In this document: positions 10,844-56,452 of the stretch, piece by piece
Numbering within the stretch: the first letter of the stretch is position 1
Layout of the letters: each line of letters begins with the position of its first letter
NCBI RefSeq assembly: GCF_030684315.1
Contig: NC_081378.1
Location: forward strand, 23,422,571 to 23,486,570
Direction of reading: 5' to 3'
Length of the DNA: 64,000 nt
Origin: Stegostoma tigrinum
Lineage: Eukaryota
Translations under genes and position numbers: made by a program
The notes under the pieces: model-generated
What the model was told of the DNA's origin: nothing
The model's input: the letters and a program-made list of their open reading frames with translations, nothing else
Databases searched by the model: none

Positions 10844-11295
10844 GTGAGTGAACAGAACCAACAGGAAACATGGTGGAACATTATTATATTTGGTTGCTCT
10901 GTCTGTTCACTTGCTTTGAAATAAAATTTTCATCTATTAAGGGTTTTCTTAGTCACTTTCAAAACATTCGGTGAAGCGCACATGCAGAAAATCATGAAAT
11001 TCAATTCAGATCAAATGTGAATGAAATAACATAAAACTATGTAAAACGTATTGCTATATCCTTAACTCTACTACAATGTGATTGTATATTGGGTAGTACA
11101 TGCACACTAAGTAGAAACGATGATTAGACCACTTTTGGGAAGGAATAGCAATGTTCACACAGAATGAATGTCTAATACAAAACCCTAAAAAGGTATAAGT
11201 GATAATGGGAACTACAGATGCTGGAGAATCCAAGATAATAAAATGAGGCTGGATGAACACAGCAGGCCAAGCAGCATCTCAGGAGTACAAAAGCT

Positions 11296-11323
11296 GACGT
11301 TTCGGGCCTAGACCCTTCATCAG
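11296..11323 (-). ncRNA. Minimal hammerhead ribozyme motif in PLE terminal region
   Basis: Reverse complement is CTGATGAAGGGTCTAGGCCCGAAACGTC: CUGAUGA core, stem II GGGU/GCCC, GAAAC, GUC triplet. Confidence 0.7.
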
Positions 11324-13244
11324 AGAGGGGGATGGGGAGAAAGAACTGGAATAAGTAGGGAGAGAGGGGGAGGCGGACCAAAGATGGAGAGAAAAGAAGA
11401 TAGGTAGAGAGGAGAGTATAGGTGAGGAGGGTGGGAGGGGATAGGTCAGTCCAGGGAAGACGGACAGGTCAAGGAGGCAGGATGAGGTGGTAGGTAGGAA
11501 ATGGAGCTGCGGCTTGAGGTGGGAGGAAGGGATGGGTGAGAGGAAGAACAGGTTAGGGAAGCCAAGACAGGCTGGGCTGGTTTTGGGATGCAGTGGGTGG
11601 AGGAGACGAGCTGGGCTAGTTTTGTGATGCAGTGGGGGGAGGGGAAGAGCTGGGCTGGTTTTGGGATACAGTGGGGGAAGGGGAGATTTTGAAGCTTGTG
11701 AAGTCCATGTTGATATCATTGGGCTGCAGGGTTCCCAAGCGGAATATGAGTTGCTGTTCTTGCGACCTTCGGGTGGCATCATTGTTGCACTGCAGGAGGC
11801 CCATGATGGACATATCATCTGAGGAATGGGAGGGGGAGTTGAAATGGTTCGCGACTGGGAGGTGCACTTGTTTGTTACAAACCGAGCAGAGGTGTTCTGC
11901 AAAGCAGTCCCCAAGCCTCCGCTTGGCTTCCCCAATGTAGAGGTAGCCACAGTGGGTATAATATACCACATTGGCAGATGTGCAGGTGAACATCTGCTTG
12001 ATAGGGAAGGTCATCTTGGGGCCGGGGATAGGGGTGAGGGAGGAGGTGTGGGGGCAAATGTAGCACTTCATGCGGTTGCTGGGGAAGGTGTGGTGGGGTT
12101 GGAGGGGAGTGTGGACCGGACGAGGGAGTCGCGGAGAGAGTGGTCTCTCCTGAAGGCAGACAAGGGTGGTGATGGAAAAATAGCTTGGGTGGTGGGGTCG
12201 GATTGTAGATGGCGGAAGTGTCGGAGGATGATGCGTTGTATCCGGAGGTTGGTGGGGTGGTGTGTGAGAACGAGGGAGATCCTCTGGGGGCGGTTGTGGC
12301 GGGGGCGGGGTGTGAGGGATGTGTTGCGGGAAATGTGGGAGACGCGGTCAAGGGCGCTATCGACCACTGCGGGGGGAAAGTTGCGGTCCTTGAATAACAT
12401 GGACATCTGGGATGTGCGGGAGTGGAATGCCTCATCCTGGGAGCAGATGTGGTGGAGGCGGAGGAATAGGGGATGGAATTTTTGCAGGAGGGTTGGTGGG
12501 AGGAGGTGTATTCTAGGTAGCTGTGGGAGTCAGTGGGCACACCTGGCACCTTCCCCTACAACCGCAGGAAGTGCTACACTTGCCCCCACACCTCCTCCCT
12601 CACCCCCACCCCAGGCCCCAAGATGACTTTCCATATCAAGCAGATGTTCACCTGCACATCTGCCAATGTGGTATATTGTATCCATTGTACTCGGTGTGGC
12701 ATCGTCTACATTGGGGAAACCAAGCGGAGGCTTGGGGACCGCTTTGCAAAACACCTCCGCTCGGTTCGCAACAAACAACTGCACCTCCCAGTCGCGAACC
12801 ATTTCAACTCCCCCTCCCATTCCTCAGACGATATGTCCATCATGGGCCTCCTGCACTGCCACAATGATGCCACCGGAAGGTTGCAAGAACAGCAACTCAT
12901 ATTCCGCTGGGGAACCCTGCAGCCCAATGATATCAATGTGGACTTCGCCAGCTTCAAAATCTCCCCTTCCCCCACTGCATCCCAAAACCAACCCAGCCTG
13001 TCTCTGCTTCCCTAACCTGTTCTTCCTCTCACCCATCCCTTCCTCCCACCTCAAGCCGCAGCTCCATTTCCTACCTACCACCTCATCCTGCCTCCTTGAC
13101 CTGTCCGTCTTCCCTGGACTGACCTATCCCCTCCCTACCTCCTCACCTATTCTCTCCTCTCTACCTATCTTCTTTTCTCTCCATCTTTGGTCCGCCTCCA
13201 CCGCTCTCCCTATTTATTCCAGTTCCCTCTCCCCATCCCCCTCT

Positions 13245-13272
13245 CTGATGAAGGGTCTAGGCCCGAAACGTC
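13245..13272 (+). ncRNA. Minimal hammerhead ribozyme motif in PLE terminal region
   Basis: CTGATGAAGGGTCTAGGCCCGAAACGTC, identical to the other four copies. Confidence 0.7.
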
Positions 13273-13599
13273 AGCTTTTGTGCTCCTGAGATGCTGCTTG
13301 GCCTGCTGTGTTCATCCAGCTTCACACTTTGTTATCCTAAAAAGGTATAGTCTTTTTTCTTTATTTCCTCCTGTTTTTCTAAAATGTTCTCCTCCTTGTT
13401 AGAGACAAATATGAATGACCACAGACTTGAGACCAAGGCTCTATAACTCTCTTGTAGAATTTAGAATTTTAGAATTTGGAACTGTACAGCAAAATTTTCC
13501 TTTGATATATCTTGCAGTTCTGATTTATTCAGTGTAAGGACATCCTACACTCAACATCCAGCCAACGTGCAATCTGTCCTAAATATTAGCCTCCTTTAG

Positions 13600-18657: not shown

Positions 18658-18899
18658 AGAGTCTGTCTCAGATCAGAAGGGGTGTAAAGTGTGAAATTTT
18701 CTTTAATACAGTAACAGTGGTCCAAGATCCTTAACAGTCAGCAATATTTTCCTATCAAGTTTCGTCTGGGTATATAATACTTGACAACTCTTTGCTAACT
18801 TCAATGAATCTAGCAACGTGACAATGGTTAACTGCTTATGTGTTAAAATTAAAGAATTTAAAAAGTTTCTACCTTTTAACCTATTGGCATTGTTTGCAG

Positions 18900-19108
18900 A
18901 AACCAGCCCTAGTTTCAGTTGCTATCAGTCCAGAACTCCAGACATCTGCCACAAAGTTCTGCCTGAAACAGAAGAGCCACCGAGGACTGAACAGGAACGT
19001 GTGGGCTGTGGATTTCTTCCACATTCTACCTGTCATGCCACCATCACCTTCTCACTTAGCAGAGTTTTCTATCAACTTGGGCTGTGGATCTCTTCAACCA
19101 GGCAACAG
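18900..19108 (+). CDS. RELN: Reelin coding exon (~exon 14), 209 bp
   Basis: Acceptor tgtttgcag, donor gtagca. [69 protein letters not shown]. Confidence 0.96.
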
Positions 19109-20428: not shown

Positions 20429-20557
20429 CATAAGTTTGGAGTTTTCAACAAATCATGGACGATCGTGGTCCCTACTGCACATGGAGTGCCTGCCTGACCT
20501 ATGCACAGGCCCACACCATCCCCACAGCTCTGTCTATTCTTCTGAAAACTATAGTGG
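20429..20557 (+). CDS. RELN: Reelin coding exon (~exon 15), 129 bp, with Asp-box/BNR motif
   Basis: Acceptor actaccag, donor gtaaga. [43 protein letters not shown]; STNHGRSW is the Asp-box. Confidence 0.97.
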
Positions 20558-20903
20558 GTAAGAATCTAACTTAAATTCTATTATTATCTTTGATTTAAAA
20601 AAACTTTAAATTACTACGGTGTAGTGCGGAATGACTCTTCCCTTTCTCCATCCCTCTCGATACACCCCACCTTCCTTCCTTCCATGCCACTCCACCAGTA
20701 GCAAGCCAAACAGTGGAGCTGAAATAGTGCCAGACCCTGTTGAAAAGAAGCTAAATGAGAGTGATCCAGGAACTTAGTTGGCTCAGTAACTGTTCAGTCA
20801 GATGGGGTGCCATACTTCTGCACATTTCTGAAATCACTGAACTAGTAAAAATATCAATATTGAAGAGGTCATTTGATAACATGTATGTTGTCCTGTGTTA
20901 CAG

Positions 20904-21013
20904 GTGGAGTCGTATAACCATTCCTCTGCCATATGCAGCGCTCACCACAGGGACCAGATTTCGTTGGAGCCAGATGGGCCCTGTGGCTGGAAATATGTGG
21001 GCAATTGACAATG
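20904..21013 (+). CDS. RELN: Reelin coding exon (~exon 16), 110 bp
   Basis: Acceptor gtgttacag, donor gttagt. [36 protein letters not shown]. Confidence 0.97.
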
Positions 21014-21958
21014 GTTAGTCATATTGGGCATTTGAAATTTAATATTATACAAAGTAGAATCAACATGATTGCAGGTGTCCAAGTTGTGTTCAGCTAGTTA
21101 TTTCCTTGCATGTTTCATTTAGTTTGTTTGAATTGCTTATTTAATTGGGACATTTGGAAAACTCTATAATGAATAATAACTAATAGCTGATAGACAATTC
21201 AATCTGAAGTTCTATTAATATGCTACTATATGTCATAGCAATTTTTTAACAATGATTCATTTTTTCAACTTGTATCATCTTTTATTAAAAACAATGACTC
21301 ATGGGTTAAATGTACACCTTTGTTTGAGTTTCAACCATTCAAACCAGAAGATTCCACGTTCCTGATCAAAGTTGATCAGGGTGAGATTGATTTTCCTGAG
21401 ATTGATTTGTCCCTGCACTAGAAAACACCTGGCCATGGTTCTCATTCCTGACTGCAAAACAGAAACCCTTGCTTGAAGCTGATATGCATCAGCTTTGAAT
21501 TTGAAACTTGCTAGGTTCAGGATTTGAACTCTGTACACAATCTACCATCACAGCAGCAATCACAATTGGGGCTGAAAAAATGGCCATATTTGTGAAGTGT
21601 CAAAGAATGAACATTTCCTATGAAGCTTTAAAAACAAATGACTTGAATCCTTTAGTAGGGTTATAGTGACAGAAAATGAATAAAGGTTAAAGAAGAATGG
21701 ATAAAGTTGTAGTGGCACAAATGTTAGGCATCAACCATATCACTGTTCATATTTCCTTTGAATTCTTCCTGTGTATAATGTTAGCAAAATATTCAGTTGT
21801 AGAGGACAAAACAGATAATCTTAGTTATTTAGGGCAATATATTTTATCAATGTGACATGTTCACCCAGTTTATTCCTGTTGTGAATCTTGTAAACAAAAT
21901 TTAGCTCAAGCTGACATTGCAATAGTCTGATCTTTGAGATGTTTTATTCCTTCTGCAG

Positions 21959-25650: not shown

Positions 25651-26414
25651 GTAAATAATAAGATCCTTAATGAACAATTGTAATTATAAATGGCTGCTAG
25701 TGTTCACACAGAAGTGATGTGCTTTTAGCCTGAGGCTATTATTGTTTATCTTGCTGTCTGTAGAATTCTTCACAGTTTTTAAAAAAAAGTTGCCTCAGAA
25801 GCCAGTTTGCTAGTTCATTGAATACTTTTGGGATGCTATTGCCACTTTTTCATCAAACAGCTGAAAGACATAGTAGCACTGTGGTCCTGCACTACATAAT
25901 CTTTATCATACTGGTTCAAGCCTCCTTGAAGACAGTGGGCCAAGATAACTGTGTTAGTCTAAACTGAAATTTTCACACCCCAATCCATGTTTGTATCTGC
26001 TTTGAACTCAGAAAATGACACCCTTATGTCAAGTGTAACATTAAAATAAATGTTTGTTACTTCACTCAGAGAAATAAAAAGGTGAGATTAACATTCTACA
26101 ATATGAAAGTAGATATATTTTCATCAAGTTGCCGCTGTTTTGAGACAGGTTCCTGTTCAGTGACTTTCTTTCACCTCAACCTTGCTACCTGCGATCTAGA
26201 GCTTTCTTTGCAGGCATTTTGTGGCTGAGAAAATAAAATGTTTGCATTAAACTTCACCAGACTGGTACTGATTATGTGGAATATTGTCTTAAAATGGGAG
26301 TGACAAAGTTGTTTTTGTGTTTATGGAGCAAAATGGTTTGAGTTGTGGAGCTTTTACCACTCCATGTGAAGGTCAAATTGATGTTCCCCTTAAATCCATA
26401 TGTCTCAACTTGCT

Positions 26415-26689
26415 AGTGCTATCAGATCTTGGTGCCTCATCATTTGGTAATTAAATCTGCTATTTTCAAATCTCCATAAGCATGTCCACAAGCAGACAAA
26501 ACAGCAGATAAACACTTCAGCACAAATTGAATTGTTTTGAGCTTGAAGGCTGAGCTGCTGGGCTCAGAGCCAGTAGGCTACAAACCCTAATTTTGTATTA
26601 TGTGACATAAGCTAAAATTACATCATAAGGGTGGAAAAATCATTCAAAAAAGAGATGATTTGGCAGCAACCGATTGCTGCCAGCCCAGA
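26415..26689 (+). repeat. ~275 bp direct repeat, copy 1
   Basis: agtgctatcag...ggcagcaaccgatt.ctgccagc is repeated at 28998-29278 with long exact blocks. Confidence 0.9.
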
Positions 26690-28240: not shown

Positions 28241-28997
28241 TGACCGCTTTTGCTGTGTCGAGCCTGACTGCCTTCCTGTGTTTTGGACAACAGCAGATTG
28301 CAATGTTATTTACTGTGTTCCTGGGCCTGTCTCCTCTTTGCTGCACAAATGGTCCTTGCCCTCCACAGTCAACCTGATGGCTCTTTCCTCAAAAGAGTTT
28401 GAGAATCCATGTCAACTTATCTCTTTTCCCCACCCCCCCCACCCCAACCAACAGCCATTGCTGACTTGTCAGTCTTGCAGTCTGGGTCCGGTTGTGCATC
28501 ATAAGGATTGAGCGTGTTGGGAATCAGTGCAGGAGCAGTTTGTCATCATCAGTTGTCATAACCATTGCAAGTGGTGAGGCCTCCCAAGTGAGTGAATGGG
28601 AAGCAGCGTGGGCAGGAATGATACTAGGTTGAAAGGCTGAGATTGTTTGAGTAGACATCATGCATGTGAATGCTGAGGCTTGTGGGATTTGGCCCTTTGT
28701 GAGATACATGAGCAGTGACACTGTGAAGCTCTTGTAACATTGTGGTAGCGATAAGAAGATGTTATCACTTAAATGATTGATACTTTTCCTGCAGTGTTTG
28801 TTGTCTGTTTCATGGGGGCCAGTGACATTGATCTGTGCTGCTGCATTTGGGACAGATCTGATGGGATAGCCTCATGATGCGGTCACCCAGGAAGAAGATT
28901 GGCTTTCTGTGTAGGGTGGCATCAGTAAACCTTGAAGCCATCTTAGGAACCTTGATAAGCATTACTGGGCTTCTAACGTGACTACCATAGGCTGGCC

Positions 28998-29278
28998 AGT
29001 GCTATCAGGTCTTGGTGCCCCATCCATTTGGTCATTAAATCTGCTATTTTCAAATCTCCATAAGCACAAAAGTCAAGCAGACAAAACAGCAGATAAATAC
29101 TTTAGCGCAAATTGAATTCTTTTGAGCTTGAAGGCTGAGCTGCTGGGCTCAGAGCCAGTAGGCTACAAACCCTAATTTTTGTATTATGTGACATAAGCTA
29201 CAAATTACATCATAAGGGTGGAAAAATCATTCAAAAAAAGAGATGATTTGGCAGCAACCGATTTACTGCCAGCTCAGA
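28998..29278 (+). repeat. ~275 bp direct repeat, copy 2
   Basis: Shares for example ttttgagcttgaaggctgagctgctgggctcagagccagtaggctacaaaccctaatttt exactly with copy 1. Confidence 0.9.
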
Positions 29279-29538: not shown

Positions 29539-29811
29539 TCTCATGGAACATCTGGCTTGCAAGGGTACTGAGCCATGAAGCATGTGATTTCATTGGATAA
29601 CCCATCCCAAGCCTTGGATGACTCAAAATGCCATCAAATACTCTCGATGCCATACTTTTAACTTCAAAATTCTGCCTATTAGATTTTCTGTGCAATTTCA
29701 GTATTAATACAACCCTCTCTATTGCGTAAGTGGCGTATTTTAATAAACACGTTTCAGTATGGGTTTCTGTAAGATTGGAAATACCCTGCCTCAAACTCTT
29801 ATGATTCCCAG

Positions 29812-29973
29812 GTTCCTCCAGTTTACTCTTCGCCTGGGCAGCAAGTATGTACTAAGCACGTGCAAACCACCAGACCAGCCAGGAGAAGGGATTCTACTGC
29901 ACTTTTCTGCCGACAATGGAATCACGTGGAATTTGCTGCAACATTACTCTTACCAGAATTACCATGAGCCAAG
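29812..29973 (+). CDS. RELN: Reelin coding exon (~exon 19), 162 bp, with Asp-box
   Basis: Acceptor attcccag, donor gtaaga. [54 protein letters not shown]. Confidence 0.97.
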
Positions 29974-30569
29974 GTAAGAAAAATACAGGTCACTGTATAA
30001 CACTTCCATGAATACTAGCAAGTTAACCCTCTAGTAATGAACCGAATCTTAATTTTCCTCTGAAATACCCCTGTAAACCATTAAATTGTAACAGATTACA
30101 ACAGAAAAAAAATTGAGCATACTTATGCCTCATGGATAGCAGAAGTTCAAGAAGGTATCTCATGATTACTTTCTTGAAGACAGTTAGAGATGAGCAAAAT
30201 GCTGGCCCTGTTTGAAATTCCATCATGCCCTGATGAATGAAAAATTGCTAAAACGTTTAACAGCTTTTACTGTTTTTACTTCCAATCTGTTGCTTTGTAT
30301 GGAATATTACTTGTGATTCTCCTATAGTCTAAATTTATGAAAAGGTAGAGTACTTTTCAAATTGCTTTAGTATACCCAAATTCTGGAACTATCCATTTGT
30401 TGACATCTCAGTTTCTACTTTCTCAGAAAGTAAGTTTGTCAATTTCAGCCAGAATCAGGATCTAACCATCAGTGCTGGTATTTTAGTGTACCAATAACTG
30501 TGCAGTTTATTCACTGTTCTTCTGCAGACATTCTGAATATCCTCATCCGAAGCAGGCACTCAACTGTAA

Positions 30570-31340
30570 CTGAATGATGAAGTGATGAATTTTGGAAGGT
30601 CAAGTGCATTTGGAAATTATACAGTGAATGGCAGAAACCCTTAGAACTGTTGAAATGCAGAGAGATCTGAGTGTGCAGGTCCACAGATCACTGAAGTGCA
30701 GGTAGATAAGGTAGTAAAAAAGGCTTATGGCATGCTTGCTTTCATTGGAAGGGGCATTGAGTATAAGAATAGACAAGTTATGCTGCAGCTTTATAGAACT
30801 TTAATTAGGCCACACTTGGAATGTTACGTACAGTTCTGGACACCACACTACCAGAAGAATGAGGATGTTTTCCAGAGGGTACAGAAAAGTTTTACCAGGA
30901 TGTTGTCTGGTATGGGGGATTTTAGCCATGAAGAAAGCTTGAATAGACTGGATTTGTTCTCACCAGAACCCAGGAGGTTGTGGGGCGACCTGATGGAAGT
31001 TTATAAAATTATGAATGGCATGGATACAGTGGAAAATCTGAAGTTTTTTTCAGGGTGGAGGGGACACAGGTTTAAGGTGCAAGGGAGAAAATTTAAAAGA
31101 GCCGTGTGAGGTAGGTTTTTCACACAAAGAGTGGTGAGTGGCTGGAACATGTTGCCAAAGGAGGTGTGGAAGCAAACACAGTAGTAGCATTCAAGATGCA
31201 TCTGGATGAATACATGAATAGGAAGGGAATAGAGGGATATGGATCTTGTAAGTGAAGATAATTTTAGCATGGAAGGGCAAAATGATTTGGCGTGGGCTTG
31301 GAGGTCCAAAGGTCCTGTTCCTGCGCTGTACTGTTCTTTG
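30570..31340 (+). mobile_element. CR1-type LINE 3' end
   Basis: ORF 30696..31109: QVDKVVKKAYGMLAFIGRGIEYK...RPHLECYVQFWTPHYQK. Confidence 0.9.
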
Positions 31341-34945: not shown

Positions 34946-35476
34946 GTAATCGTGGTATGATACGAATTGAGACTCACAAAGCAAATCCGAGATTAAATAA
35001 ATTGGCACAGTCAGATCATACCGAGGTGGAGGCCACAGGAGTTCTGGAGTGCTATTATCTTAAGAAAGGAATAGTTATGAAAATGTGGAGACCCCCCTCA
35101 CAGATTCACACCTCAGATAGTGGTAGAACTCAGCTATGGTAGAGAGATGTTACAAGTAGCAAATGGAGTTCCCATGGCAGGACATATAGGGATCTGAAAA
35201 GCTCAAGTGCACATACACAGATATTTTACCTGGTCAAACTTAAATAAGGATGTTGTACATTTTTATAAAATATGCCATAATCATCAAATTGTAAGTAAAC
35301 CTCGACATTAAATGAACCAGCACTCTAGATCCCAAAACTGATTTTGAGGAACCATTCAGTTGCATACTAGTGGATTGTGTAGAACTGCTACTTAAGACAA
35401 AAGCTGGATTGTGGCCACTCAATTTTCAAAAGCTGTTTGTTTAAGAACAATCAGAGTTAAGGTGGTAGTGGAAAAA

Positions 35477-37309
35477 TTCCCTGGCCCCCAACACCTCATA
35501 TTCACCATGGACGTCCAGTCCCTGTACACCTGCATTCCGCATGGAGATGGCCTCAAGGCCCTCCGCTTCTTCCTGTCCCGCAGGCCCGACCAGGCCCCCT
35601 CCACCGACACTCTCATCCGCCTAGCGGAACTCGTCCTCACACTCAACAACTTCTCTTTTGACTCCTCCCACTTCCTACAGACTAAGGGGGTGGCCATGGG
35701 CACCCGCATGGGCCCCAGCTATGCCTGCCTCTTTGTAGGTTACGTGGAACAGTCCATCTTCCGCACCTACACAGGCCCCAAACCCCACCTCTTCCTCCGG
35801 TACATTGATGACTGTATCGGCGCCGCCTCTTGCTCCCCAGAGGAGCTCGAACAGTTCATCCACTTCACCAACACCTTCCACCCCAACCTTCAGTTCACCT
35901 GGGCCATCTCCAGCACATCCCTCACCTTCCTGGACCTCTCAGTCTCCATCTCAGGCAACCAGCTTGTAACTGATGTCCATTTCAAGCCCACCGACTCCCA
36001 CAGCTACCTAGAATACACCTCCTCCCACCCACCCTCCTGCAAAAATTCCATCCCCTATTCCCAATTCCTCCGCCTCCGCCGCATCTGCTCCCACGATAAG
36101 ACATTCCACTCCCGCACATCCCAGATGTCCAAGTTCTTTAAGGACCGCAACTTCCCCCCCACGGTGATTGAGAACGCCCTTGACCGCGTCTCCCGCATTT
36201 CCCGCGACACATCCCTCACACCCCGCCCCCGCCACAACCGCCCCAAGAGGATCCCCCTCGTTCTCACACACCACCCTACCAACCTCCGGATACAACGCAT
36301 TATCCTCCGACACTTCCGCCATTTACAATCCGACCCCACCACCCAAGACATTTTTCCATCCCCACCCCTGTCTGCTTTCCGGAGAGACCACTCTCTCCGT
36401 GACTCCCTTGTTCGCTCCACACTGCCCTCCAACCCCACCACACCCGGCACCTTCCCCTGCAACCGCAGGAAATGCTACACTTGTCCCCACACCTCCTCCC
36501 TCACCCCCATCCCAGGCCCCAAGATGACATTCCACATTAAGCAGAGGTTCACCTGCACATCTGCCAATGTGGTATACTGCATCCACTGTACCCGGTGTGG
36601 CTTTCTCTACATTGGGGAAACCAAGCGGAGGCTTGGGGACCGCTTTGCAGAACACCTCCGCTCAGTTCGCAACAAACAACTGCACCTCCCAGTCGCAAAC
36701 CATTTCCACTCCCCCTCCCATTCTCTTGATGACATGTCCATCATGGGCCTCCTGCACTGCCACAATGATGCCACCCGAAGGTTGCAGGAACAGCAACTCA
36801 TATTCCGCCTGGGAACCCTGCAGCCATATGGTATCAATGTGGACTTCACCAGTTTCAAAATCTCCCCTTCCCCCACTGCATCCCTAAACCAGCCCAGTTC
36901 ATCCCCTCCCCCCACTGCACCACACAACCAGCCCAGCTCTTCCCCCCCACCCACTGCATCCCAAAACCAGTCCAACCTGTCTCTGCCTCCCTAACCGGTT
37001 CTTCCTCTCACCCATCCCTTCCTCCCACCCCAAGCCGCACCCCCAGCTACCTACTAACCTCATCCCACCTCCTTGACCTGTCCGTCTTCCCTGGACTGAC
37101 CTATCCCCTCCCTACCTCCCCACCCACACCTTCTCCACCTATCTTCTTTACTCTCCATCTTCGGTCCGCCTCCCCCTCTTCCCCCTATTTATTCCAGTTC
37201 CCTCCCCCCATCCCCCTCTCTGATGAAGGGTCTAGGCCCGAAACGTCAGCTTTTGTGCTCCTGAGATGCTGCTTGGCCTGCTGTGTTCATCCAGCCTCAC
37301 ATTTTATTA
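35477..37309 (+). mobile_element. Penelope-like element B, 5'-truncated, uninterrupted RT-linker-GIY-YIG frame to the stop at 36994; probably Neptune clade
   Basis: RT motifs TMDVQSLYT, QTKGVAMG, RYIDD; linker cysteine motif CNRRKCYTC; VVYCIHCTRCGFLYIGET. TSD tagtggaaaaa at 35466-35476 and 37310-37320. Confidence 0.94.
37220..37247 (+). ncRNA. Minimal hammerhead ribozyme motif in PLE terminal region
   Basis: CTGATGAAGGGTCTAGGCCCGAAACGTC, about 225 nt after the PLE stop codon. Confidence 0.7.
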
Positions 37310-39434
37310 TAGTGGAAAAACTAACACTGTTTTTTACCTGTATTGGTCTACCAATGGAAGTACAGTCTGATCAAGGATAAAAGAATCAAGGATTATTATG
37401 TCAAAACATTTTCAGAATATCATCATTGGTTTGCGGAGGTATCACCAAACTTTTAAAACCATGATCAAAGCTTTATGTTATGAGTATCCAAAGGATTATG
37501 ACAAAAGGTTAGATTTTCTCCTATTTGCCACCAATCTCCAAATGATCCCACTGGTTTCAGTTCATTTGAGTTTGTTTATGGCTATGAAATAAGAGGACCA
37601 TTGTAACAGATCAGAAATAAATTGTGAAATCACAAAAATTAATCTTCATGGTAAAAAATTGATTGTGTCATGTGAATATGTTAAAACAGTAGTGTTGTAG
37701 AGAAGGCGATGAGTAAGTACAGGTGAATCAAATAGGTAAATCTACTAGAGGAGAACAGAGGAAAGAAGGATGAGAGTGAAGATGAAATGGACAATTTCCA
37801 AAGCAAACTTCCTGCTATTAGATTAACAAATTTGGATAAGGTAGAGATTTTCGATGTTATTTTCATATTTGGAGAAAGATCAACAGTTAGATATAGTGAG
37901 ATTGCTCAGGTGATACAAAGAAGGTATTTTTATTCAACCCAATCAGAGATGTTACAGCACACGTCTGAAGCAAGTGGGACTAGAATCCAGTCATCCTGGA
38001 ACTGAGGTAGGGGCACCACAACTGTCCAACAAGACCCCTAGTTTGCAGAGAAACACTTAGATAATACTACATTAATCAAACATGACAGGGTTGGAGATAG
38101 TTCAGACCCAATGAAACAAAAGCCATATCAAAACCCAGTGAAACAGGTCCAAGTAACGAAAGAAATTCATTGTGTTGGAAAATCAATTGATTAAGCCAAG
38201 CCCATTAGTATTGGTCCATAAACAAGATGGTTCAATTAAATTATGTGTATGCCACAGAAAATTGAATGAAGTCACAAAGTTGGATTTGTACCCTATTCCC
38301 AAACGAGAAGATTGCATTGATGGGGTTTGGTGGTGTGTTATTCTTATGTAAAATTGGCTTGTTAAAAAGATACTAGAGCTACTGTGGACAGTAAGGACAA
38401 AGGAAACTAGCACTTTTATCACATCCAGTGGATTATACTGATTTCAGGTTACGCCATTTGGATTTAATAATATCCCAACCACACTCCAGTGATTAATGAA
38501 CAGATATATGGCCGATGTACCTAATTCTGCAGATCATTTGGATGATATTATGCATAGCAACACATGGAAAGAACATATACAAAACTTGTTTAAACAATTA
38601 CTGTAAGCTGGGTTGGTGTTAAATCTAGCAAAAAATGAATTTGTTGAAGTTACATATTTAGGATTTAATGTTCGGCAAAGACAGGTGTCATTCAGAACAG
38701 CTGAAGTAAGAGCTTTGATTGACTTCTGCGTCCCTGAAACAAAATGAAATATAATGAGGTTTTGTTAATGTTGAGATGTTATCAGACGTTTGTACCTAAT
38801 TTCAGTATAATAACTGTGACCTTAACCAACCTGCTATGAAAACAGACAAAGATGGCATGGTCAACAGAATGCCAGGCAGCCTTTGAAAGGCTGAAACCAA
38901 TCTTAACAAATGAACCTGTATTAACTGTAACTAACTTTCAGAAACCATTTAAATTAGTAGTAAATGCTAACAATTTGAGGATTGAAGCAGTTTTCTTACA
39001 GGATGACAGGGCCTAAATGGAATGGCCAGGGGTTATTTTTCCAAGAGTTAAATCAACATCAGAAGAAATATTCCACTATGGAAACTGAGGTATTGCACTC
39101 AACACTTTGAGGTTTATTTTTGACATGGGGATCCACAAAACTTTGGCTTCTACTGATCATAATGTTAACTTTATGAGAGATTTAAGACTAAAACTCTGAG
39201 ATTGTTCTGCTGGAGTTTGTATTGCAACCTTATGATACAAAAGTTGTACATATTTTGGTGAAAGAAAATGTAATTGCCAGTGCTTTATTCTAATTTTAAT
39301 CTATTGAAAAATGTAAGCAATTTAAGTAGGAAGAATAGTTGTGAGGTTTCTGTTTTGTTTGTCATGTAAATAATACTAACCTTGTCATGAAACGCATCTT
39401 TGAAATGACGTTTCATTCTTGTGAGGGTGGACAT

Positions 39435-44481: not shown

Positions 44482-44730
44482 AGACAAAAATGAATTGCAA
44501 GAGAAACTCAGCAGGATTGGCAGCAACTGTGAAGGGAGGAACAAAGTTAATTTTACGGGTCCTGTTACCCTTCTTCCATTCCTCTGAGTTCTGAAGAAGC
44601 GTCACCGGATTTGAACCATTAACTCTGCTCTCCCTTCACAATTGCTGCGAGTCCTGTTGAGTTTCTCTAGCAAGTACTGTTTATGTTTGTTTCAGATCTT
44701 CAGCATCTGCATTTCTTTTTTGTATTTTTA
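44482..44730. mobile_element. Miniature palindromic PLE-terminus element (two inverted copies)
   Basis: ttgcaagagaaactcagcagga...gcagcaactgtgaaggga is inverted as tcccttcacaattgctgc...tcctgttgagtttctctagcaa. The plus arm has ctgaagaagcgtcaccggatttgaaccatt (decayed hammerhead). Confidence 0.7.
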
Positions 44731-45289
44731 TCTCTTTGGAGTTATGGGCACAGCCGCCCAAAAGGTACCTTACGATCCACGCACAAATTGTCTGTTTTAG
44801 TTTACAGTGCTTTCAATATGTACATATTTTCTGCTTCCTCTTAAAGCTTGCATTGCATCTACTCACCTTCAAATCCCAGCAACTTTCCCTAATCCAGCTG
44901 TCCACTTTGTCTAAAACCTTTGAATGTCATTATGTTAAACTTGAAATCTGGCCTTGCAGCTTCATGACATCTGTAATATTACAAAAAGCATTTTATTTTA
45001 AATGTATAACAAGTACTGCTTGTGTTATTTTTGAATACAAGAGCACATTTAGAGCCATAGAGATGTACGGCATGGAAACTGACCCTTCGGTCCAACTTGT
45101 CCATGCTGACCAGATATCCTAAATTAATCTAGACCCTTTTGCCAGCATTTGGCCCATATCCCGCTAAATCCTTCTTATTCATATATCCATACAGATACCT
45201 TTTAAATGTTATAATTGTACCAGCCTCCTCTACTTCCACTGGAATCTCAGAAATAGCTCAGGAGATTGAAAGATCACCACCAATGCTTT

Positions 45290-46735
45290 GATGAGAATCA
45301 CTGGAGTCAGGGAGGATCCCAGAGGACTGGAAAATGGCTAATATAACGCCTCTGTTTAAGAAGTGAGGGAGGCAGAAGACAGGAAATTGTAGGCCAGTTA
45401 ACTTGACCTCATTTGTTGGTAAGATTTTAAAGACCATTGTTAAAGTTGAACACTTGGAAGCACAGGGTAAAATAGGACAGAGTCAGTACAGCTTTGTCAA
45501 GGGGAAGTTATGCCTGACAAATCTGTTAGAATTCTTTGAGAAGGTAATGAGTAAGTTCCACAAGAGACAGGCAATGGATGTAATCTGTTTGGATTTCCAG
45601 AATTCCTCCGACAAGGAGCAGTTCAGATGGCTACTAAATAAGCTAACAGCTCAGGGTTTTAGGGACAGGGTACTGGCATAGATAGAGGATTGGCTGACTG
45701 GCAGAAGACAAAGTAGGGATAAAAGGATCTTTTTCAGGGTAGCAGTGGGTGATTATTAGAATTCCACAGGGGCCAGTGTGTGGGCGGATGACGGAACTGA
45801 GGGCATTGTTGCTCAGTTTGTAGATGATGCAAAGATAGGTGGAGGGACAGGTACTGTTGAGGAAGTGGGGAGGCAGCAGAAGGACTTGGACAGGTTAGGA
45901 GAATGGGCAAAGAAGTGGCAGATGGAATACATTCTCAAAGTACAAGGTTATGCACTTTGACGGGATGTATAGAGGCATAGATTATTTATAAATGGAGAAA
46001 GGCTTCAGAAATCTGAAGCACGAGGAAACTTGGGAGCCCCCATTTCGGATTCTCTTAAGGTTAACTTGCAGGTTCAATTGGCAGTTAGGAAGACAAATGA
46101 AATATTAGCATTCATTTCAAGAAGACAAGAGCAAAGATATATTGTTGAGGCTGTATAAGGCCCTGGGCAGACCACTTTTGGAATATTGTGAACAGTTTTG
46201 AGCCCCATATCTAAGAAAGGACGCGTTGGCATTGGAGGGGGGTCCAGAGAAGGTTTCCAAGCATGATCCTGGGGAATGGGGCCTTGTTATACTCGGAGCA
46301 GTTGAGGATTCTAGGCCTGTGTTTGATGGAGGTAAGAAGAATGGGGGAGGTGAGGGTTGCAGGGTGAGGGGATAAATCTGTTTGAAATTTTTAGAATACT
46401 GAGAGGTCTGAACACGGTAGATGTAGAGAAGATTTTCCACTGGTAGGAGAGACGAGGGACTGAGGGCACAGCCTCAGAGTGAACTGAGATGAGGAGGAAT
46501 TCCTTCAGCCAGAGAGTGATGAATCTGTGGAACGTATTGTGACAGAATGATGTGGAGGCTAAATCACACAGTTTATCTAAGACAGGGCGAGTAGGTTCTT
46601 GGTTAGTAAAAAGATCAAGCGTTACAGGGAGAAGGCAGTAGAATGGTGTTTAAAAACATATCAGCCATGACCAAGTGGCAGACTAGACTGTAGAGGCCAA
46701 ATGGCCTAATTCTGCTTCTACATCTTATGGTCTTA
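45290..46735 (+). mobile_element. CR1-type LINE RT and 3' tail
   Basis: GQSQYSFVKGKLCLTNLLEFFE...DVICLDFQ and AQFVDDAKIGG...DLDRLGEWAKKWQMEY; tail tcttatggtctta. Confidence 0.9.
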
Positions 46736-47504: not shown

Positions 47505-49200
47505 ATCCCCTCTGAAGTGTTAAAGTACCGCAGAGAGGCACCGCTAATACGCATCTGTGATTTCATCACCACTGCCTGGAAGGAAGAGGTCATGCTGGGA
47601 GATCTGAGACAGTAAAGTTTTGACCATCTTTAAGAAAGGAGCCAGGCCTGGCTTTGGAAATTGCAGAAGGATTTCCCTGCTGTCGGCCATGGGAAAGGTC
47701 ATGTGAGAATTCTTCTCAGCTGCCCCGTCCCAGAGGCTAAAGAGCTCCTCCACGAATATCAATGTGCCTGTGCCCATCGAGGTACACAATGGACATGATT
47801 TCAGTGCACAACAAATCCAAGCGGAGCACACAGAACAGCACCCACCTCTAAACATAGTCTTCTTCAATCTTTCAAAGGCCTTCGACTGTCAACCATGAGT
47901 GATTGTGGAATATATTCATCAGATTGGGCTGTCTGCAGAAACTCACCACTATTCTCAACCTGCTTTGGGATGACATACAAACTGACCTGCATCAAATGAT
48001 GCACCACAGACGCAATAGGAGTGTAAACTAGGGTCAAACAGAGCTGCATCATAGCAGCAATGCTCAGCTCTAACTTCCTCACTGCAACACTCCACCTCCC
48101 CTCCATGAAACTCCCAGCTGGAGTGCAGCTAAGCTACAAGATGAGTGGGAAACTGTTCAACTTTTGCACCTTCAGTCCAGAACCAAGACCATCCCAACTT
48201 CTATCACCGAGCTGCAATAAGCAGGCAATGCCTGCATGCGCGCACACTCAGAGGCCAAGCTATAAACCATCAACACAATCACTGAGGCATATGAGACTGA
48301 ACCGCAGACTAAACATCCGGAAAACAAAGGTTCTGTACCAGCCTGCTCCTACCACACAGCGCACCACCGACTCCCCAACTCCCTCCCCCCAACATCAGCT
48401 GGACAATGTGGATCATTTCCCATACCTTGGGAGCCTCCTTTTCCTGTGAATGGACATTGACAATGAAATCCAACATTGACTCCAATGCCTTAAGTTGCCT
48501 CCTCCCTGTGGTTGAAGAGTAGTGCAGCTGTTGGATTCCTAAGGAACAAGGCTGCTCGATGCCCGAGACCTCAAACCCAGCATCAAGCTCATGGTCTACA
48601 GAGCAGCCATGCCCCCACCTTCCTGTATGTATCAGAAACATGGACTATGTATAGCAGACAATTCAAAAACATGGAAATTTATCACCGGCACTGCCTTTGC
48701 TTATCCACTGGCAGGAAACACACACCAGCATGAGTGTTCTATCCCAGGCAAATATCCCCAGTGTCGAGGCACTAGTCTCTCACGATCAGCTGCGATGGGT
48801 GGGCAACATTTTCTGCAAGGCCACCACAAGACTCCCTAAATGACTGATCTACTGCAAGCTCCACAATGTTAGGCAATCATTGGGAGGGGAGAGGAAATCC
48901 TACAAGGATACCCTGGAAATCTTCCAAAATAAATGTGATATCCCCGCCAACTCATGGGAATGCATAATCTGGAGAGGAAGCATCAGCGAAGACACCAACT
49001 ACTTCCAGCATCATTGAGTAGAGCACATGGCAGCCAAACACAAGCTTGGAATGAGCGAGCAGAATCCAGAGGGTCCCATTCACACAGCTAATCAAACACC
49101 AGCTGGCCTCCTGTGGTGGTGTCTGCAGCTACATGCTTAGTGTTCAAGCCCCGTGGAGTGGAAGCAAGTCATTCTTGACCCTGAGGGACTGTCAAAGAAG
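47505..49200 (+). mobile_element. Decayed RTE-clade LINE (RT to 3' end)
   Basis: Remnants GKLFN, LNIRKTKVLYQPAP, VDHFPYLGS, LYVSETWTMY. The tail gagtggaagcaagtcattcttgaccctgagggactg also occurs at ~23930. Confidence 0.8.
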
Positions 49201-49670
49201 ACTACTTATTTGCTGCTTTTTAAAACCTCTGATACAAATAGAAAAAATATTTTAGTTTTTTGGATGGAAATAGATCTTTTATTCTTTACCTGCTATATAT
49301 TTTATCCAATATGTGAAGCGAGTAATTATTGTTGGTCATGCTAGTCAGTTAAATACTTGTCTCAGCATCTGCAGTTCTTTGTTTTAGTTAAATGTTTAGT
49401 GCGTTCATCTGAAATTCCTCTGTGACTTACTTAAATGCATACATTGGCCTATGTCTTTGTATGAATGCTCTGGTAAAATATTAGACAAAGAACACCAAAT
49501 ACACATTTTAGATTTTCATCCATTAATGTGTGAACAGAAGTTCAAAAATCCAAATTTGCGATCAAGTACAAGAGATAATGGGAACTGCAGATGCTGGAGA
49601 ATCCAAGATAATAAAATGTGAGGCTGGATGAACACAGCAGGCCAAGCAGCATCTCAGGAGCACAAAAGCT

Positions 49671-49698
49671 GACGTTTCGGGCCTAGACCCTTCATCAG
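49671..49698 (-). ncRNA. Minimal hammerhead ribozyme motif in PLE terminal region
   Basis: gacgtttcgggcctagacccttcatcag, the reverse complement of the same 28-mer. Confidence 0.7.
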
Positions 49699-52284
49699 AG
49701 AGGGGGGTGGGGTGAGGGTTCTGGAATAAATAGGGAGAGAGGGGGAGGCGGACCGAAGATGGAGAGAAAAGAAGATAGGTGGAGAGAGTATAGGTGAGGA
49801 GGTAGGGAGGGAATAGGTTAGTCCAGCAAAGACGGACAGGTCAAGGAGGTGGGATGAGGTTAGTAGGTAGATGGGGGTGCGGCTTGGGGTGGGAGGAAGG
49901 GATGGGTGAGAGGAAGAACAGGTTAGGGAGGCAGAGACAGGTTGGACTGGTTTTGGGATGCAGTGGGTGGAGGGGAAGAGCTGGGCTGGTTGTGTGGTGC
50001 AGTGGGGGGAGGGGACGAACTGGGCTGGTTTAGGGATGCAGTAGGGGAAGGGGAGATTTTGAAACTGGTGAAGTCCACATTGATACCATTAGGCTGCAGG
50101 GTTCCCAAGTGGAATATGAGTTGCTGTTCCTGCAACCTTCGGGTGGCATCATTGTGGCACTGCAGGAGGCCCATGATGGACATGTCATCTAAAGAATGGG
50201 AGGGGGAGTGGAAATGGTTTGCGACTGGGAGGTGCAGTTGTTTGTTGCGGACTGAGCGGAGGTGTTCTGCAAAGCGGTCCCCAAGCCTCCGCTTGGTTTC
50301 CCCAATGTAGAGGAAGCCACACCGGGTACAGTGGATGCAGTATACCACATTGGCAGATGTGCAGGTGAACCTCTGCTTAATGTGGAATGTCATCTTGGGG
50401 CCTGGGATAGGGGTGAGGGAGGAGGTGTGGGGGCAAGCGTAGCATTTCCTGCGGTTGCAGGGGAAGGTGCCGGGTGTGGTGGGGTTGGAGGGCAGTGTGG
50501 AGCGAACAAGGGAGTCACGGAGAGAGTGGTCTCTCCGGAAAGCAGACAGGGGTGGGGATGGAAAAATGTCTTGGGTGGTGCGGTCGGATTGTAGATGGCG
50601 GAAGTGTCGGAGGATGATGCGTTGTATCCGGAGGTTGGTGGGGTGGTGTGTGAGAACGAGGGGGATCCTCTTTTGGCGGTTGTGGCGGGGGCGGGGTGTG
50701 AGGGATGTGGTGCGGGAAATGCGGGAGACGCTGCCAAGGGCGTTCTCGATCACTGTGGGGGGGAAAGTTGCGGTCCTTGAAGAACTTGGACATCTGGGAT
50801 GTGCGGGAGTGGAACGTCTTGTCGTGGGAGCAGATGCGGCGGAGGCGGAGGAATTGGGAATAGGGGATGGAATTTTTGCAGGAGGCTGGGTGGGAGGAGG
50901 TGTATTCTAGGTAGCTGTGGGAGTCGGTGGGCTTGAAGTGGACATCAGTTACAAGCTGGTTGCCTGAGATGGAGACTGAGAGGTCCAGGAAGGTGAGGGA
51001 TGTGCTGGAGATGGCCCAGGTGAACTGAAAGTTCACTGATGCCCACTTCAAGCCCACCGACTCCCACAGCTACCTAGAATACACCTCCTCCCACCCACCC
51101 TCCTGCAAAAATTCCATCCTCTATTCCCAATTCCTCCGCCTCCGCCGCATCTGCTCCCACGACAAGACGTTCCACTCCCGCACATCCCAGATGTCCAAGT
51201 TCTTCAAGGACCGCAACTTTCCCCCCACAGTGATCGAGAACGCCCTTGACCGCGTCTCCCGCATTTCCCGCAACACATCCCTCACACCCCGCCCCCGCCA
51301 CAACCGCCAAAAGAGGATCCCCCTCGTTCTCACACACCACCCCACCAACCTCCGGATACAACGCATCTTCCTCCGACACTTCCGCCATCTACAATCCGAC
51401 GCCACCACCCAGGACATTTTTCCATCCCCACCCCTGTCTGCTTTCCGGAGAGACCACTCTCTCCGTGACTCCCTTGTTCGCTCCACACTGCCCTCCAACC
51501 CCACCACACCCGGCACCTTCCCCTGCAACCGCAGGAAATGCTACACCTGCCCCCACGCCTCCTCCCTCACCCCTATCCCAGGCCCCAAGATGACATTCCA
51601 CATTAAGCAGAGGTTCACCTGCACATCTGCCAATGTGGTATACTGCATCCACTGTACCCGGTGTGGCTTCCTCTACATTGGGGAAACCAAGCGGAGGCTT
51701 GGGGACCGCTTTGCAGAACACCTCCGCTCAGTCCGCAACAAACAACTGCACCTCCCAGTCGCATACCATTTCCACTCCCCCTCCCATTCTTTAGATGACA
51801 TGTCCATCATGGGCCTCCTGCAGTGCCACAATGATGCCACCCGAAGGTTGCAGGAACAGCAACTCATATTCCACTTGGGAACCCTGCAGCCTAATGGTAT
51901 CAATGCGGACTTCACCAGTTTCAAAATCTCCCCTTCCCCAACTGCATCCCTAAACCAGCCCAGTTCGTCCCCTCCCCGCACTGCACCACACAACCAGCCC
52001 AGCTCTTCCCCTCCACCCACTGTATCCCAAAACCAGTCCAACCTGTCTCTGCCTCCCTAACCTGTTCTTCCTCTCACCCATCCCTTCCTCCCACCCCAAG
52101 CCGCACCCCCATCTACCTACTAACCTCATCCCACCTCCTTGACCTGTCCGTCTTTGCTGGACTGACCTATTCCCTCCCTACCTCCCCACCTATACTCTCT
52201 CCACCTATCTTCTTTTCTCTCCATCTTCGGTCCGCCTCCCCCTCTCTCCCTCTTTATTCCAGAACCCTCACCCCATCCTCCTCT

Positions 52285-52312
52285 CTGATGAAGGGTCTAG
52301 GCCCGAAACGTC
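52285..52312 (+). ncRNA. Minimal hammerhead ribozyme motif in PLE terminal region
   Basis: CTGATGAAGGGTCTAGGCCCGAAACGTC. Confidence 0.7.
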
Positions 52313-52617
52313 AGCTTTTGTGCTCCTGAGATGCTGCTTGGCCTGCTGTGTTCATCCAGCCTCACATTTTATTATCTTGCGTTCAAGTATAATTATTTTT
52401 CTACTAAGGTTTGTGTAAGTGCCGCCTCTTTCCTTTATCTTACAAGCTTTTCAAGTGTTATTGCTGATATTGTAAGTTCTTTAATGTTCATTTTTTAAGT
52501 TACTTTCTTATTTCTGCTAGAAATGAGGGAATTTCTGTTGTGACAGCTATCACATGGCCTCGGAGCCAGCCTATTAACTAACAATTTTGAATTGAAACCA
52601 AACTTAAATGACTTGGT

Positions 52618-52735
52618 GATAGCAAGAACTGCAAATGCTGGAGTCAGAGATGACACAGCATGGTGCTGGAGGAACACAGCAGGCCAACCAGAGGAGCAGG
52701 AAAGTTGACGTTTTAGGTCGGAACCCTTCTTCAGA
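52618..52735 (-). mobile_element. Short PLE-terminus element, same family as the tail at 56330-56452
   Basis: Minus strand reads CTGAAGAAGGGTTCCGACCTAAAACGTC. Flanks aaatgacttggt / aagtcacttggt (10/12). Confidence 0.7.
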
Positions 52736-53272
52736 AAGTCACTTGGTCCCCTGTTAAACCTCTGGAAGAAGTGAGCTCACCTCATGAAAAGAAATGTTAA
52801 TTTGTCAGATTAATTTTTCTCAATTCCATTTATCAGTGAATATTACTGGGACCACTGTTTTTTTGGTGATAGCTCACATGTGAATTGCACATCATTGCCT
52901 CAGTGTTTTTACAATATTTTACAATTATTTTCCCATCTACTTAATGAGTTTTGTTTTATAAAGCTTCTGGTTCACTTACATGTTGGAAACCATATCTACC
53001 CTTCTTACAGATGAAAAATGAGCCATCTCAAGAGGTCATTTTAATAACAATTTATTGAGATCTATCGTCATGTTGTCTGTATGTCTCCATGTAGTTCTTT
53101 GTCTTGTTGACAATGTGACAAAGCTATTCTTCCCTATAGGAGAAGATTTGTGAGTATTGTTTGACTTTACATTTTACTAGACTCTGCCTTCTGAGAATAC
53201 CACAGATAGAAAGAGATGATCGGCAGAGTTTGTGCAGGTAATTTTAATAAAAGGTTGTTTTTTTGGTTTTAG

Positions 53273-53509
53273 AATTATTTCTGTGGAACTCCCAGAAAAT
53301 GCCCAGCAGTTTGGCATCCAGTTCCGATGGTGGCAGCCTTATCACTCTGGGCCTGATGAGGACGTGTGGGCTATCGATGAAATTACCATGACCTCAGTCC
53401 TATACAACAGCATTAGTCTCAATTTCACCAATCTTGTGGATGTCACTCAGTCCCTGGGGTTCTACCTGGGAAATGTCCAACCTTACTGTAACCATGACTG
53501 GACTCTAAG
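53273..53509 (+). CDS. RELN: Reelin coding exon (~exon 20), 237 bp
   Basis: Acceptor ttttggttttag, donor gtagga. [78 protein letters not shown]; continues directly from HEPR, so the 23.3 kb intron before it needs no further coding exon. Confidence 0.97.
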
Positions 53510-54959
53510 GTAGGAAGCATGCTCTATTTGCTGAACTTGGTTTAATTTCTCATATTCCCTTGAAGTAATATTTCCAGGTTTGGAAAAAGTATATATTTTG
53601 TCAAATGTTTTCATTCCTGCTTTTCCAATATGTTTTGGCAGTGTTGAGAGGAGAAATCAAAGATTTGGATTGGATTATCTGTTAACATGCTTTGGATGAA
53701 GCATTCTTATTGACTTTTCATTAGCTTTCATGGAGATCTTGGAAACACTATCCCTTAAAAGCTGTATGGCCTTGTAGATTCATTGAGATAATTGAAAAGA
53801 TTCACCTGATAATGTGATCTGATTGTGTTGTTCTCATTCATAATAGGAAACCTCCAGCACAGTTAACTCACTCAGTTTACCAGTTACAATGCTTGGTATT
53901 CTGTGAAACCTTTAATTGTTACAAACTTTGGATATCGCAAAAAGGTAGGCTTTGACGAAAGATGAGAATAGAGCAAATAAGGCAGGGAGATTTATACAAA
54001 AGATGTCTAATGTGCAAGGTGCCAAATGGCTTCAGGCTTTGCCACTGTGGAATGGAAAAGAGGAAAATGGTTAGTGGACGAATGTCAGATGAATGGAGTA
54101 CCAGTGCTGTAATATACAACTGGAGACAACTTTACCGGTAATTCTCGAAAGAAATGTGAGGATAAGGATAAAGATCTGGAGGGTGGAACCATTCAAAACA
54201 AAAGTCATTGATGGCTGAGATTTTAAGTGAGTTAGATTCCAGGCTTTAAAAGTTTTCGGTGTTTTGTGATTTGTTAATGTTGAAAATGGGGAGACGAACA
54301 AGAGAAATACTTTGGCTCGAGCTGATGAAACTATATCCTAAATCTTACAGCTGGTGGAGATGAAGAGATGTTACTGGAGGCAGTAGTAAGTGGTTGTGGC
54401 AATGCACTGGATGAATTTGAAGCTCAGTTCAGAAGAGGATACAAACAAAGTTTTGTGTCTGCATGTAATAGTCTGAATGACATCTTTGGAAAAGGGTGGA
54501 ATGGGTGCTTGAGATGCAGCGCTATTGCCACAAGGAGAACAAAGTAGCCTCAAATAGCTTAAAGTGTATGATATTTCATAACCAGAATTTGAGAGACTGC
54601 AGTTGAACAGCGTGGTAATAGTTTGCAAACCAAGGGTGAGGATAAAATTGCACATTACCAGCATCAATGTGAAACTCTTCTTCATGATGACATAATCTTA
54701 CCAAAAGTCTTATATAGATAAAGGCTAGAATGGGGAAATGTATAACGTCTTGGAACATGGGAAATGAGGGCTTGAGTGAAGAGGGTTTGAGGAAAGAATA
54801 AAATCAAAACATGGCTTTGCCATGAAGGTAACTCTTTTGAAAACTAATAACATTTCAACATGTCACAGTCATACAAAAAATTACAAAGGAGTCAAAGATG
54901 GATTCTTTTAAGAAGAAGGTGAGGATAGCAATATTAATGGAAGAATGATCAACAAGGTT

Positions 54960-55845: not shown

Positions 55846-56452
55846 TTTCCTGCACTTCTGCCCTCACACGCCCTCACACCCCCTCCCCCCAACAAAAATT
55901 AAAATGTATCATCCCACCAACCTCCGCATCCAGCGTTTCATTCTCCACCACCTACAATCCGACTACAGTCCCTGGATGACGTGTCCATCCTGGGCCTCAT
56001 CCAGTGTCACAATGTCGCCACCCACAAACTGGAGGAGCAGCACCTCATATTCTGCCTCAGGAGCCTACAGCACAATGGTCCCAATGTGGAATTCGTCAGT
56101 TTTAAAATCTCCCCACCCGTAGCCTCGTCCTGTGTCCAACCCTCCCTCTCATCCCCGCCTCCTTGACTTGACACAACCTGTCCATGTTCTTTCCCAACTA
56201 TCTGCCCCACCCACCCCATTGACCAATCCCCACCATTCCCTATCTGCACTCACCTATCACCGTCCCGAACCTTCACGAACCCCACTCCTCCTCTGTCTAT
56301 TTATTTCCCTTCCCTTCCCCTTCCCCATTTCTGAAGAAGGGTCCCGACCCAAAACATCAACTTTTCTTTTCCTCTGCTGTCTGGCCTGCTGCGTACCTCC
56401 AGCTCCACACTGTATTGTTTCTGACTCCAGCATCTGCAGTTCTTGCTGTCTC
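55846..56452 (+). mobile_element. Older, internally deleted PLE of a related family
   Basis: Peptides YHPTNLRIQRFIL and SILGLIQCHNVATHKLEEQHLIFCL...FKISPP resemble element B. Tail ctgaagaagggtcccgacccaaaacatc is a degenerate hammerhead. Possible decayed TSD at 55831-55845 / 56453-56467. Confidence 0.85.

Follow-up and report, generated by a model that had tools for sequence, protein, structure and literature searches.

Head-to-head pairs of 5′-truncated Penelope-like elements, each within a single target site duplication, in Stegostoma tigrinum

Penelope-like elements (PLEs) have been described as inserting together with inverted copies of themselves. In the accessible sections of Craig et al. 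2021 (PMC8557442), the typical PLE carries an inverted, 5′-truncated copy at its 5′ end; one target site duplication (TSD) encloses the whole, and a tail is found at one of the ends. For Adineta vaga, the passages of Arkhipova et al. 2013 (PMC3846280) on Pen2a_Av and on the Pen2 of scaffold 304 report an adjacent inverted pLTR that closes the insert within one TSD of 8-10 bp (9-10 bp for these Pen2 copies); a tail of about 31 bp is present on one inverted end, and head-to-head is given as the most frequent arrangement. The third relevant system is Poseidon of Anolis carolinensis (PAc), whose protein, according to the available text of Frangieh et al. 2024 (PMC11167929), cleaves and extends both top and bottom strands in vitro. 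Reverse transcription by PAc was found to start from two sites, the interval between them being the tail, and a dimer was predicted; the same portion of that paper holds no proposal of two cDNAs joined head-to-head and leaves the later steps open. The literature searched, which was mostly without subscription papers (older PLE reviews included), yielded no account of such insertions from any shark and nothing that states outright that two cDNAs are joined, and the accessible parts of PMC12602865 and bioRxiv 10.64898/2026.07.22.740005 added nothing on insertion structure.

The DNA analysed here, referred to as the window, is a stretch of 64,000 nt from contig NC_081378.1 of S. tigrinum. Comparison of the window with itself identified two pairs. 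Pair C occupies 49571-52376 and pair A 11198-13335; in both, two 5′-truncated PLE arms are joined 5′-to-5′ and bracketed by a single TSD (Table 1), as the original prediction had stated. That prediction had missed a difference between the 3′ ends of the two arms: the left arm of each pair ends in a 35-nt tail that is absent from both right arms and from the solo copy of the same family, copy B. Of all features of the pairs, this one-sided tail is the most informative. The left arm is also the longer one at the 5′ end, by 84 nt in pair C and by about 450 nt in pair A. In pair C, the left arm comprises the end of the RT region, the linker, GIY-YIG, the 3′ region, the hammerhead-like motif and the tail, and the right arm holds an open frame (51029-52060) with a GIY-YIG match (E = 7e-4). 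Over the centre of pair C a short hairpin can be drawn (6-bp stem, 5-nt loop), whereas the arms of pair A meet at one shared base, 12538, and there is no palindrome at their junction. In L1 twin priming, the second target strand primes cDNA and an inverted 5′ segment results within one TSD, but the second primer lands internally and the 3′ end is not duplicated; both arms of the shark pairs, in contrast, contain the 3′ end.

Table 1. Positions of the paired and solo elements and of the reelin frames in the window (1 is the first nucleotide of the 64,000-nt stretch).
Feature	Position	Strand	Remarks
Pair A, left TSD copy	11184..11197	+	14 nt, 14/14 identical to right copy
Pair A, left arm	11198..12538	-	tailed; several small deletions
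Pair A, right arm	12538..13335	+	tail-less; 71-nt deletion within internal short tandem repeat
Pair A, right TSD copy	13336..13349	+	14/14
Reelin exon-bearing frame	29747..29974	+	Pfam Reelin_subrepeat-B, profile 36-87; upstream of B and C
Solo copy B, C/A family	35466..37320	+	including 11-nt TSD; element 35477-37310; tail-less, without inverted arm
Pair C, left TSD copy	49556..49571	+	16 nt, 2 mismatches to right copy
Pair C, tail	49571..49605	-	35 nt; on left arm, absent from right (alignment)
Pair C, left arm	49571..51033	-	5′-truncated PLE, tailed
Hammerhead-like motif, pair C left arm	49664..49698	-	core CUGAUGA, 4-bp stem, GAAA, short palindromic helix III (pattern scan, fold)
Pair C, central 5′-to-5′ junction	51022..51036	.	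left arm to 51033, extra C at 51034, right arm from 51035
Pair C, right arm	51035..52376	+	tail-less PLE arm
Pair C, right TSD copy	52377..52392	+	16 nt, 2 mismatches to left copy
Next reelin exon-bearing frame	53220..53510	+	profile 86-125

The TSDs were evaluated against 4000 random flank pairs, with the duplicate required to lie within 3 nt of both ends. The score of pair C was reached by 1/4000 random pairs, and those of pair A and copy B by 0/4000 each; in a looser search the corresponding values were 8/1500 (C), 0/1500 (A) and 4/1500 (B). When the left end of one insertion was combined with the right end of another, scores did not exceed 3, compared to 10-14 for the true pairings. No second TSD was detected at the central junction of either C or A. 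The best-scoring core of the pair C duplication is 13 nt with 1 mismatch, and the first three bases of its right copy equal the next three of the element (microhomology). Over 52377-52384 this likeness to the element's own next bases extends to 6 of 8 positions, and, of the two mismatched TSD positions, one departs towards the element sequence; pairing between primer and template is a possible explanation.

The 504-codon open frame of copy B has the order of an endonuclease-bearing PLE, RT followed by a C-terminal GIY-YIG nuclease in a single ORF, with matches to RVT_1 (6-130, E = 7e-5) and GIY-YIG (364-403, E = 1e-3) that are both below the Pfam cut-offs; 837 of 3992 candidates were homologues. 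The accessible text of PMC8557442 defines this group further by a CCHH finger whose two cysteines fall between GIY and YIG; residues 364-379 hold a CCHH-type nuclease motif, and two histidines follow it in the stretch examined. Copy B also has a CX4CxxC linker at residues 327-335, which fits the CX2-5CxxC pattern between RT and nuclease, and this linker recurred in 103 of the 108 homologues that showed the nuclease motif (108 from 120 listed). Within the part of PMC8557442 that deals with the linker, it is the mark of Neptune/Nematis, Penelope and Poseidon being without a linker finger. The presence of the finger in the shark element departs from Penelope/Poseidon and its motif, which the original prediction had missed, points to a Neptune/Nematis PLE; the label “Penelope” of that prediction is loose. 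The nearest named proteins were from Stegostoma tigrinum itself (P0002, 96% over 85%) and Rhincodon typus (P0001, 89% over 98%), indicating the same element family in carpet sharks; both are annotated merely as uncharacterized, with no insertion structure on record.

The hammerhead-like motif occurs near the 3′ end in all five arms, the four others starting at 52285 (+), 11323 (-), 13245 (+) and 37220 (+). Hammerheads are known from PLEs in the available text of PMC4209133, and endonuclease-bearing PLEs typically have a minimal one in the terminal repeat; the shark motif gave a fold z of -0.73 and no Rfam hammerhead match, the Rfam search returning only hairpin-driven miRNA matches below the gathering score. 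The tail, optional and of 30-40 nt in endonuclease-bearing PLEs, is 35 nt long here and one-sided; the TSD is variable (11 nt in B, 14 in A, 16 in C); and partial tandems or pLTRs are absent from the window, while same-strand back-joints to 49571 were present in at least 19 and at least 17 contigs of the sequencing samples. A 31-nt motif of the element had no locus (0) among metagenome or viral contigs, and a scan of metagenome contigs for the element protein gave 41 pattern matches with 0 confirmed.

Compared with the described systems, the shark pairs show the general PLE layout of PMC8557442 as far as its accessible text goes; pairs A and C are without a partial tandem. They resemble Adineta vaga Pen2, in the passages available, in the inverted repeat at the 5′ end, the enclosure of the unit in one TSD and the one-sided tail. 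They differ from it in that the inverted part of Pen2, which accompanies a full ORF, has roughly the length of one pLTR (180-220 bp), whereas both shark arms are truncated and measure 0.8-1.5 kb, and in the length of the TSD (14-16 nt in the pairs, 8-10 bp in PMC3846280). With PAc, as presented in the available part of PMC11167929, the element shares AT-rich targets and a tail delimited by two 3′ ends. PAc has a hammerhead at its pLTR, where the shark element has a hammerhead-like motif, and PAc cleaves and extends both strands, as the shark element would under the mechanism proposed below; PAc belongs to the Poseidon clade and is without the linker finger that the shark element has. The layout is thus already known for PLEs and the pairs are an ordinary shark member of it. 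The novelty implied by the original prediction is not supported, the structure being typical in the accessible text of PMC3846280 and PMC8557442 and extension of two strands having been obtained in vitro in that of PMC11167929.

Several other PLE pieces were identified in the window. At 44494-44735 there is a third head-to-head pair, decayed, whose short modules, each with a hammerhead head, come from an older PLE family and whose arms are 76% alike; tail-like sequence was seen on its right arm only, and there is no convincing TSD. Together with published reports of high frequency, this pair supports the earlier suggestion that paired insertion is a routine mode. A short element at 52618-52740 (-) consists of a hammerhead head and tail alone inside a 7-nt duplication, a score of 7 or more being reached in 26/4000 random pairs. 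Position 49699, which precedes the hammerhead core by one base, is an exit point from the element in at least 688 and at least 742 contigs of two samples; short copies with this fixed 5′ end form a class, and the end is perhaps the RNA start. At 55860-56450 (+) a related PLE is present as an older copy with deletions, its identity to C being about 75%; it has a tail and a decayed hammerhead. Combining 52618-52740 with 55900-56450 into a third pair was rejected, because a reelin exon lies between them and they are separate pieces. A direct repeat of 290 nt (26409-26689 and 28992-29278, 92% identity, 2.6 kb apart) has a hammerhead-like head at 27241 (-) and a tail-like motif at 29440 (-) in its vicinity. 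The frames at 30654-31106, 38157-38348, 45367-45678 and 48494-48836 are presumably fragments of other retroelements, which they resemble.

The arms of each pair are closer to each other than to other copies, as had been predicted. C-left and C-right differ at 22/1323 sites (1.66%), compared to 3.7-3.9% (49 and 52 differences) between the C arms and copy B; A-left and A-right differ at 49/787 sites (6.2%), compared to 8.4-9.4% between the A arms and C or B. Among the codons changed between arms, the synonymous share is 2/15 in C (two ragged junction codons dropped; 2/17 with them) and 7/31 in A, with a neutral expectation of 27%. The codon differences between C and B were synonymous in 19/23 cases (Fisher p = 4e-5), as were 9/15 of the codon changes shared by the A arms (p = 0.02). 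As the changes between arms look neutral, the arms were nearly identical at insertion and decayed afterwards. Polarisation assigned only 4 of the 23 C-versus-B codon changes to C, two synonymous and two not, and gene conversion between the arms may also have been a source of the shared C variants. At 50938 both C arms hold an allele absent from 93% (X15) and 97% (X16) of the family depth in two sequencing samples, which favours the original prediction. Insertions like those of A at 49783 and 49868 were present in at least 50 and at least 38 contigs of X15, so at least some of the A-shared variants are genome-wide subfamily markers and not private to the pair; they speak for a common subfamily more than for a common event. 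At three sites one arm has the base of copy B against its partner (0.68 expected, a rough P of about 0.03); among these is a Q/H change, variable also among shark homologues. For pair A, these sites give a weak hint of two templates.

Contigs from 4 of 21 sequencing runs (X15, X16, X1 and X9) were compared with pair C over its left flank and left arm, three bisulfite runs being left aside as unsuited. What is stated of the middle and right end of C, and of the whole of pair A, derives from the window sequence only. The left junction of C with its tail was present on contigs spanning 48410-49594 with 0 differences in both X15 and X16, either of which might itself be the source of the assembly. 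X1 represents a relative of about 94% identity (65/1101 and 86/~1350 flank bases differ), and the flank coverage of X9 was too small to judge the site. In X1, a contig of 1372 nt and single-copy depth runs along the left flank as far as 49559, after which come 271 letters that have no place on the element among the matches listed. The relative appears to be without pair C; an empty site, of the kind that the original prediction had proposed to seek in related sharks, is likely, as judged from where this contig leaves the flank.

The same contigs revealed the ends of the family at large. Summed depth over element bins was 1e6-3e7, against 30-625 in the flank (X15), a figure that is not a copy number. 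Loose ends were found at 49571 in at least 1367 (X15) and at least 1385 (X16) contigs and at 49606 in at least 610 (X15) and at least 604 (X16), which implies two classes of 3′ end, 35 nt apart genome-wide, the interval being the PLE tail; each pair has one end of each class. A head-to-head junction from 50544 to 50629 was present in both samples at depths of 1215 and 430, about 50-65x single-copy, so this inverted junction is itself amplified. Finally, opposite-strand joints from 49571/49574 to 49606-49609, in which a tailed 3′ end faces a tail-less one, occurred in at least 210 contigs of X15 and at least 197 of X16 (five rows) with a mean depth of about 2x single copy; none was among the joints listed for X1 and X9. 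Joints between two tailed ends numbered at least 48 and at least 53 contigs under another mapping, and may be under-reported.

That each pair resulted from one integration event, as originally proposed, is well supported by the single TSD, the near-identity of the arms at insertion and, for C, the likely empty site in the relative. The original prediction named priming by both nicked target strands and snap-back of a cDNA as candidate mechanisms, and these proved to be the right two to weigh. We consider that each pair probably arose by priming on both strands, two nicks giving two cDNAs from two start sites that were joined in one insertion. The nuclease of the element would nick both target strands 14-16 bases apart, and both freed ends would prime reverse transcription, the outer start site giving the tailed arm and the inner one the tail-less arm. 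Both cDNAs would halt early and their ends be united through 0-1 shared bases, after which fill-in would duplicate the staggered target. The layout, the TSDs, the two discrete 3′ ends and the near-identity of the arms at insertion are features of the window and the samples; the model adds that the steps would have been coupled in one event here, and the manner in which the cDNAs would have been joined. It is supported by the single TSD around both arms, far beyond chance, by the two-strand extension, the two start sites bounding the tail and the predicted dimer in the in vitro work available from PMC11167929, and weakly by the three sites hinting at two templates. Copy B, which ends tail-less in its own TSD without an inverted arm, implies moreover that a tail-less end needs no copy-back. 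Counted against priming on both strands are the accessible in vitro results of PMC11167929, in which the start site did not differ between strands, and the fact that the TSD copies of C differ at 2/16 positions while its arms differ by 1.7%.

Copy-back is unlikely on balance, though a serious contender. In this case the tailed cDNA from the outer site would stop, fold back and be copied toward its own start as far as the tail base, and the hairpin would be resolved and joined to the second nick, again within one event. It predicts the longer tailed arm seen in 2/2 pairs, an outcome that also counts against priming on both strands but would arise by chance with a probability of 0.25-0.5. The hairpin at the C junction weighs in the same direction, as does the self-priming model favoured for head-to-head structures in the accessible part of PMC3846280, whereas the A junction has no palindrome and only one shared base. 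The hairpin was rejected as proof of copy-back, with just one base there unexplained by either arm. The C arms differ by neutral-looking changes only, as suits copy-back, and nuclease resolution of the tail is described in the available text of PMC8557442; yet copy B, which has no inverted arm, arrived at this tail-less end too, the copying would have to halt at the very site of in-vitro-type priming, and the three sites hint at different templates.

Two successive insertions, with a copy of the same subfamily later entering the 5′ end of the first in opposite orientation, are very improbable. The family is very abundant and the A-shared variants are partly subfamily markers, as this would need, but neither centre has a second TSD, the arms match in subfamily in both pairs (in C down to an allele in 3-7% of the family depth), and the layout is seen three times within 64 kb as well as in published elements. 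We give scarcely more than passing credence to a ready-made inverted pair at a source locus, copied as a unit: the multicopy junction from 50544 to 50629 indicates that some inverted junctions are amplified, but the A and C junctions differ from each other, and a long RNA hairpin, antisense at one 3′ end, would still require priming at both ends. An artefact of assembly or library, that is, a palindromic chimera, has a negligible probability, for although long inverted repeats are hard to assemble (accessible text of PMC8557442) and the centre of C is absent from the sample-contig matches listed, the arms are 1.7% and 6.2% divergent, contain indels, end unequally and lie within TSDs, whereas chimeras yield identical arms, and the left junction of C is present in two samples.

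Priming on both strands could be taken one step further, in a reading that we regard as speculative and rather doubtful. A PLE dimer would make one staggered double nick, its RT subunits deliberately starting apart, one tailed and one tail-less; where the segment melted, the product would be head-to-head within a TSD, and where it was still paired, tail-to-tail across the target. The opposite-strand joints in at least 210 and at least 197 contigs would then be the second class, a product of which no description was found in the literature searched. These joints may also be chance neighbours, the family being abundant, insertions at an existing tail, or the outcome of self-priming. Should the double-nick reading be true, one rule would hold for all PLE end structures, and PLE integration would be testable from genomes alone.

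As an observation the finding is minor, a clean shark case of a published PLE insertion layout. Young and abundant pairs with long arms would however allow priming at two ends to be separated from copy-back by counting which arm has the tail and from which sources the arms derive, and this choice is the step of the PLE cycle that the accessible texts of PMC8557442 and PMC11167929 leave open. As to the host, five frames match the reelin repeat profile, within 18822-21015 and at the two plus-strand positions of Table 1; the latter two match consecutive parts of the profile, placing B and C in one reelin intron of about 23 kb. Pair A is upstream of the first reelin exon found (18822-19109) and likely lies within an earlier reelin intron, the two frames tried upstream of it giving 0 matches. 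Inverted repeats of 0.8-1.3 kb are now in or near a reelin gene, and pair C would give rise to long double-stranded RNA in a reelin intron.
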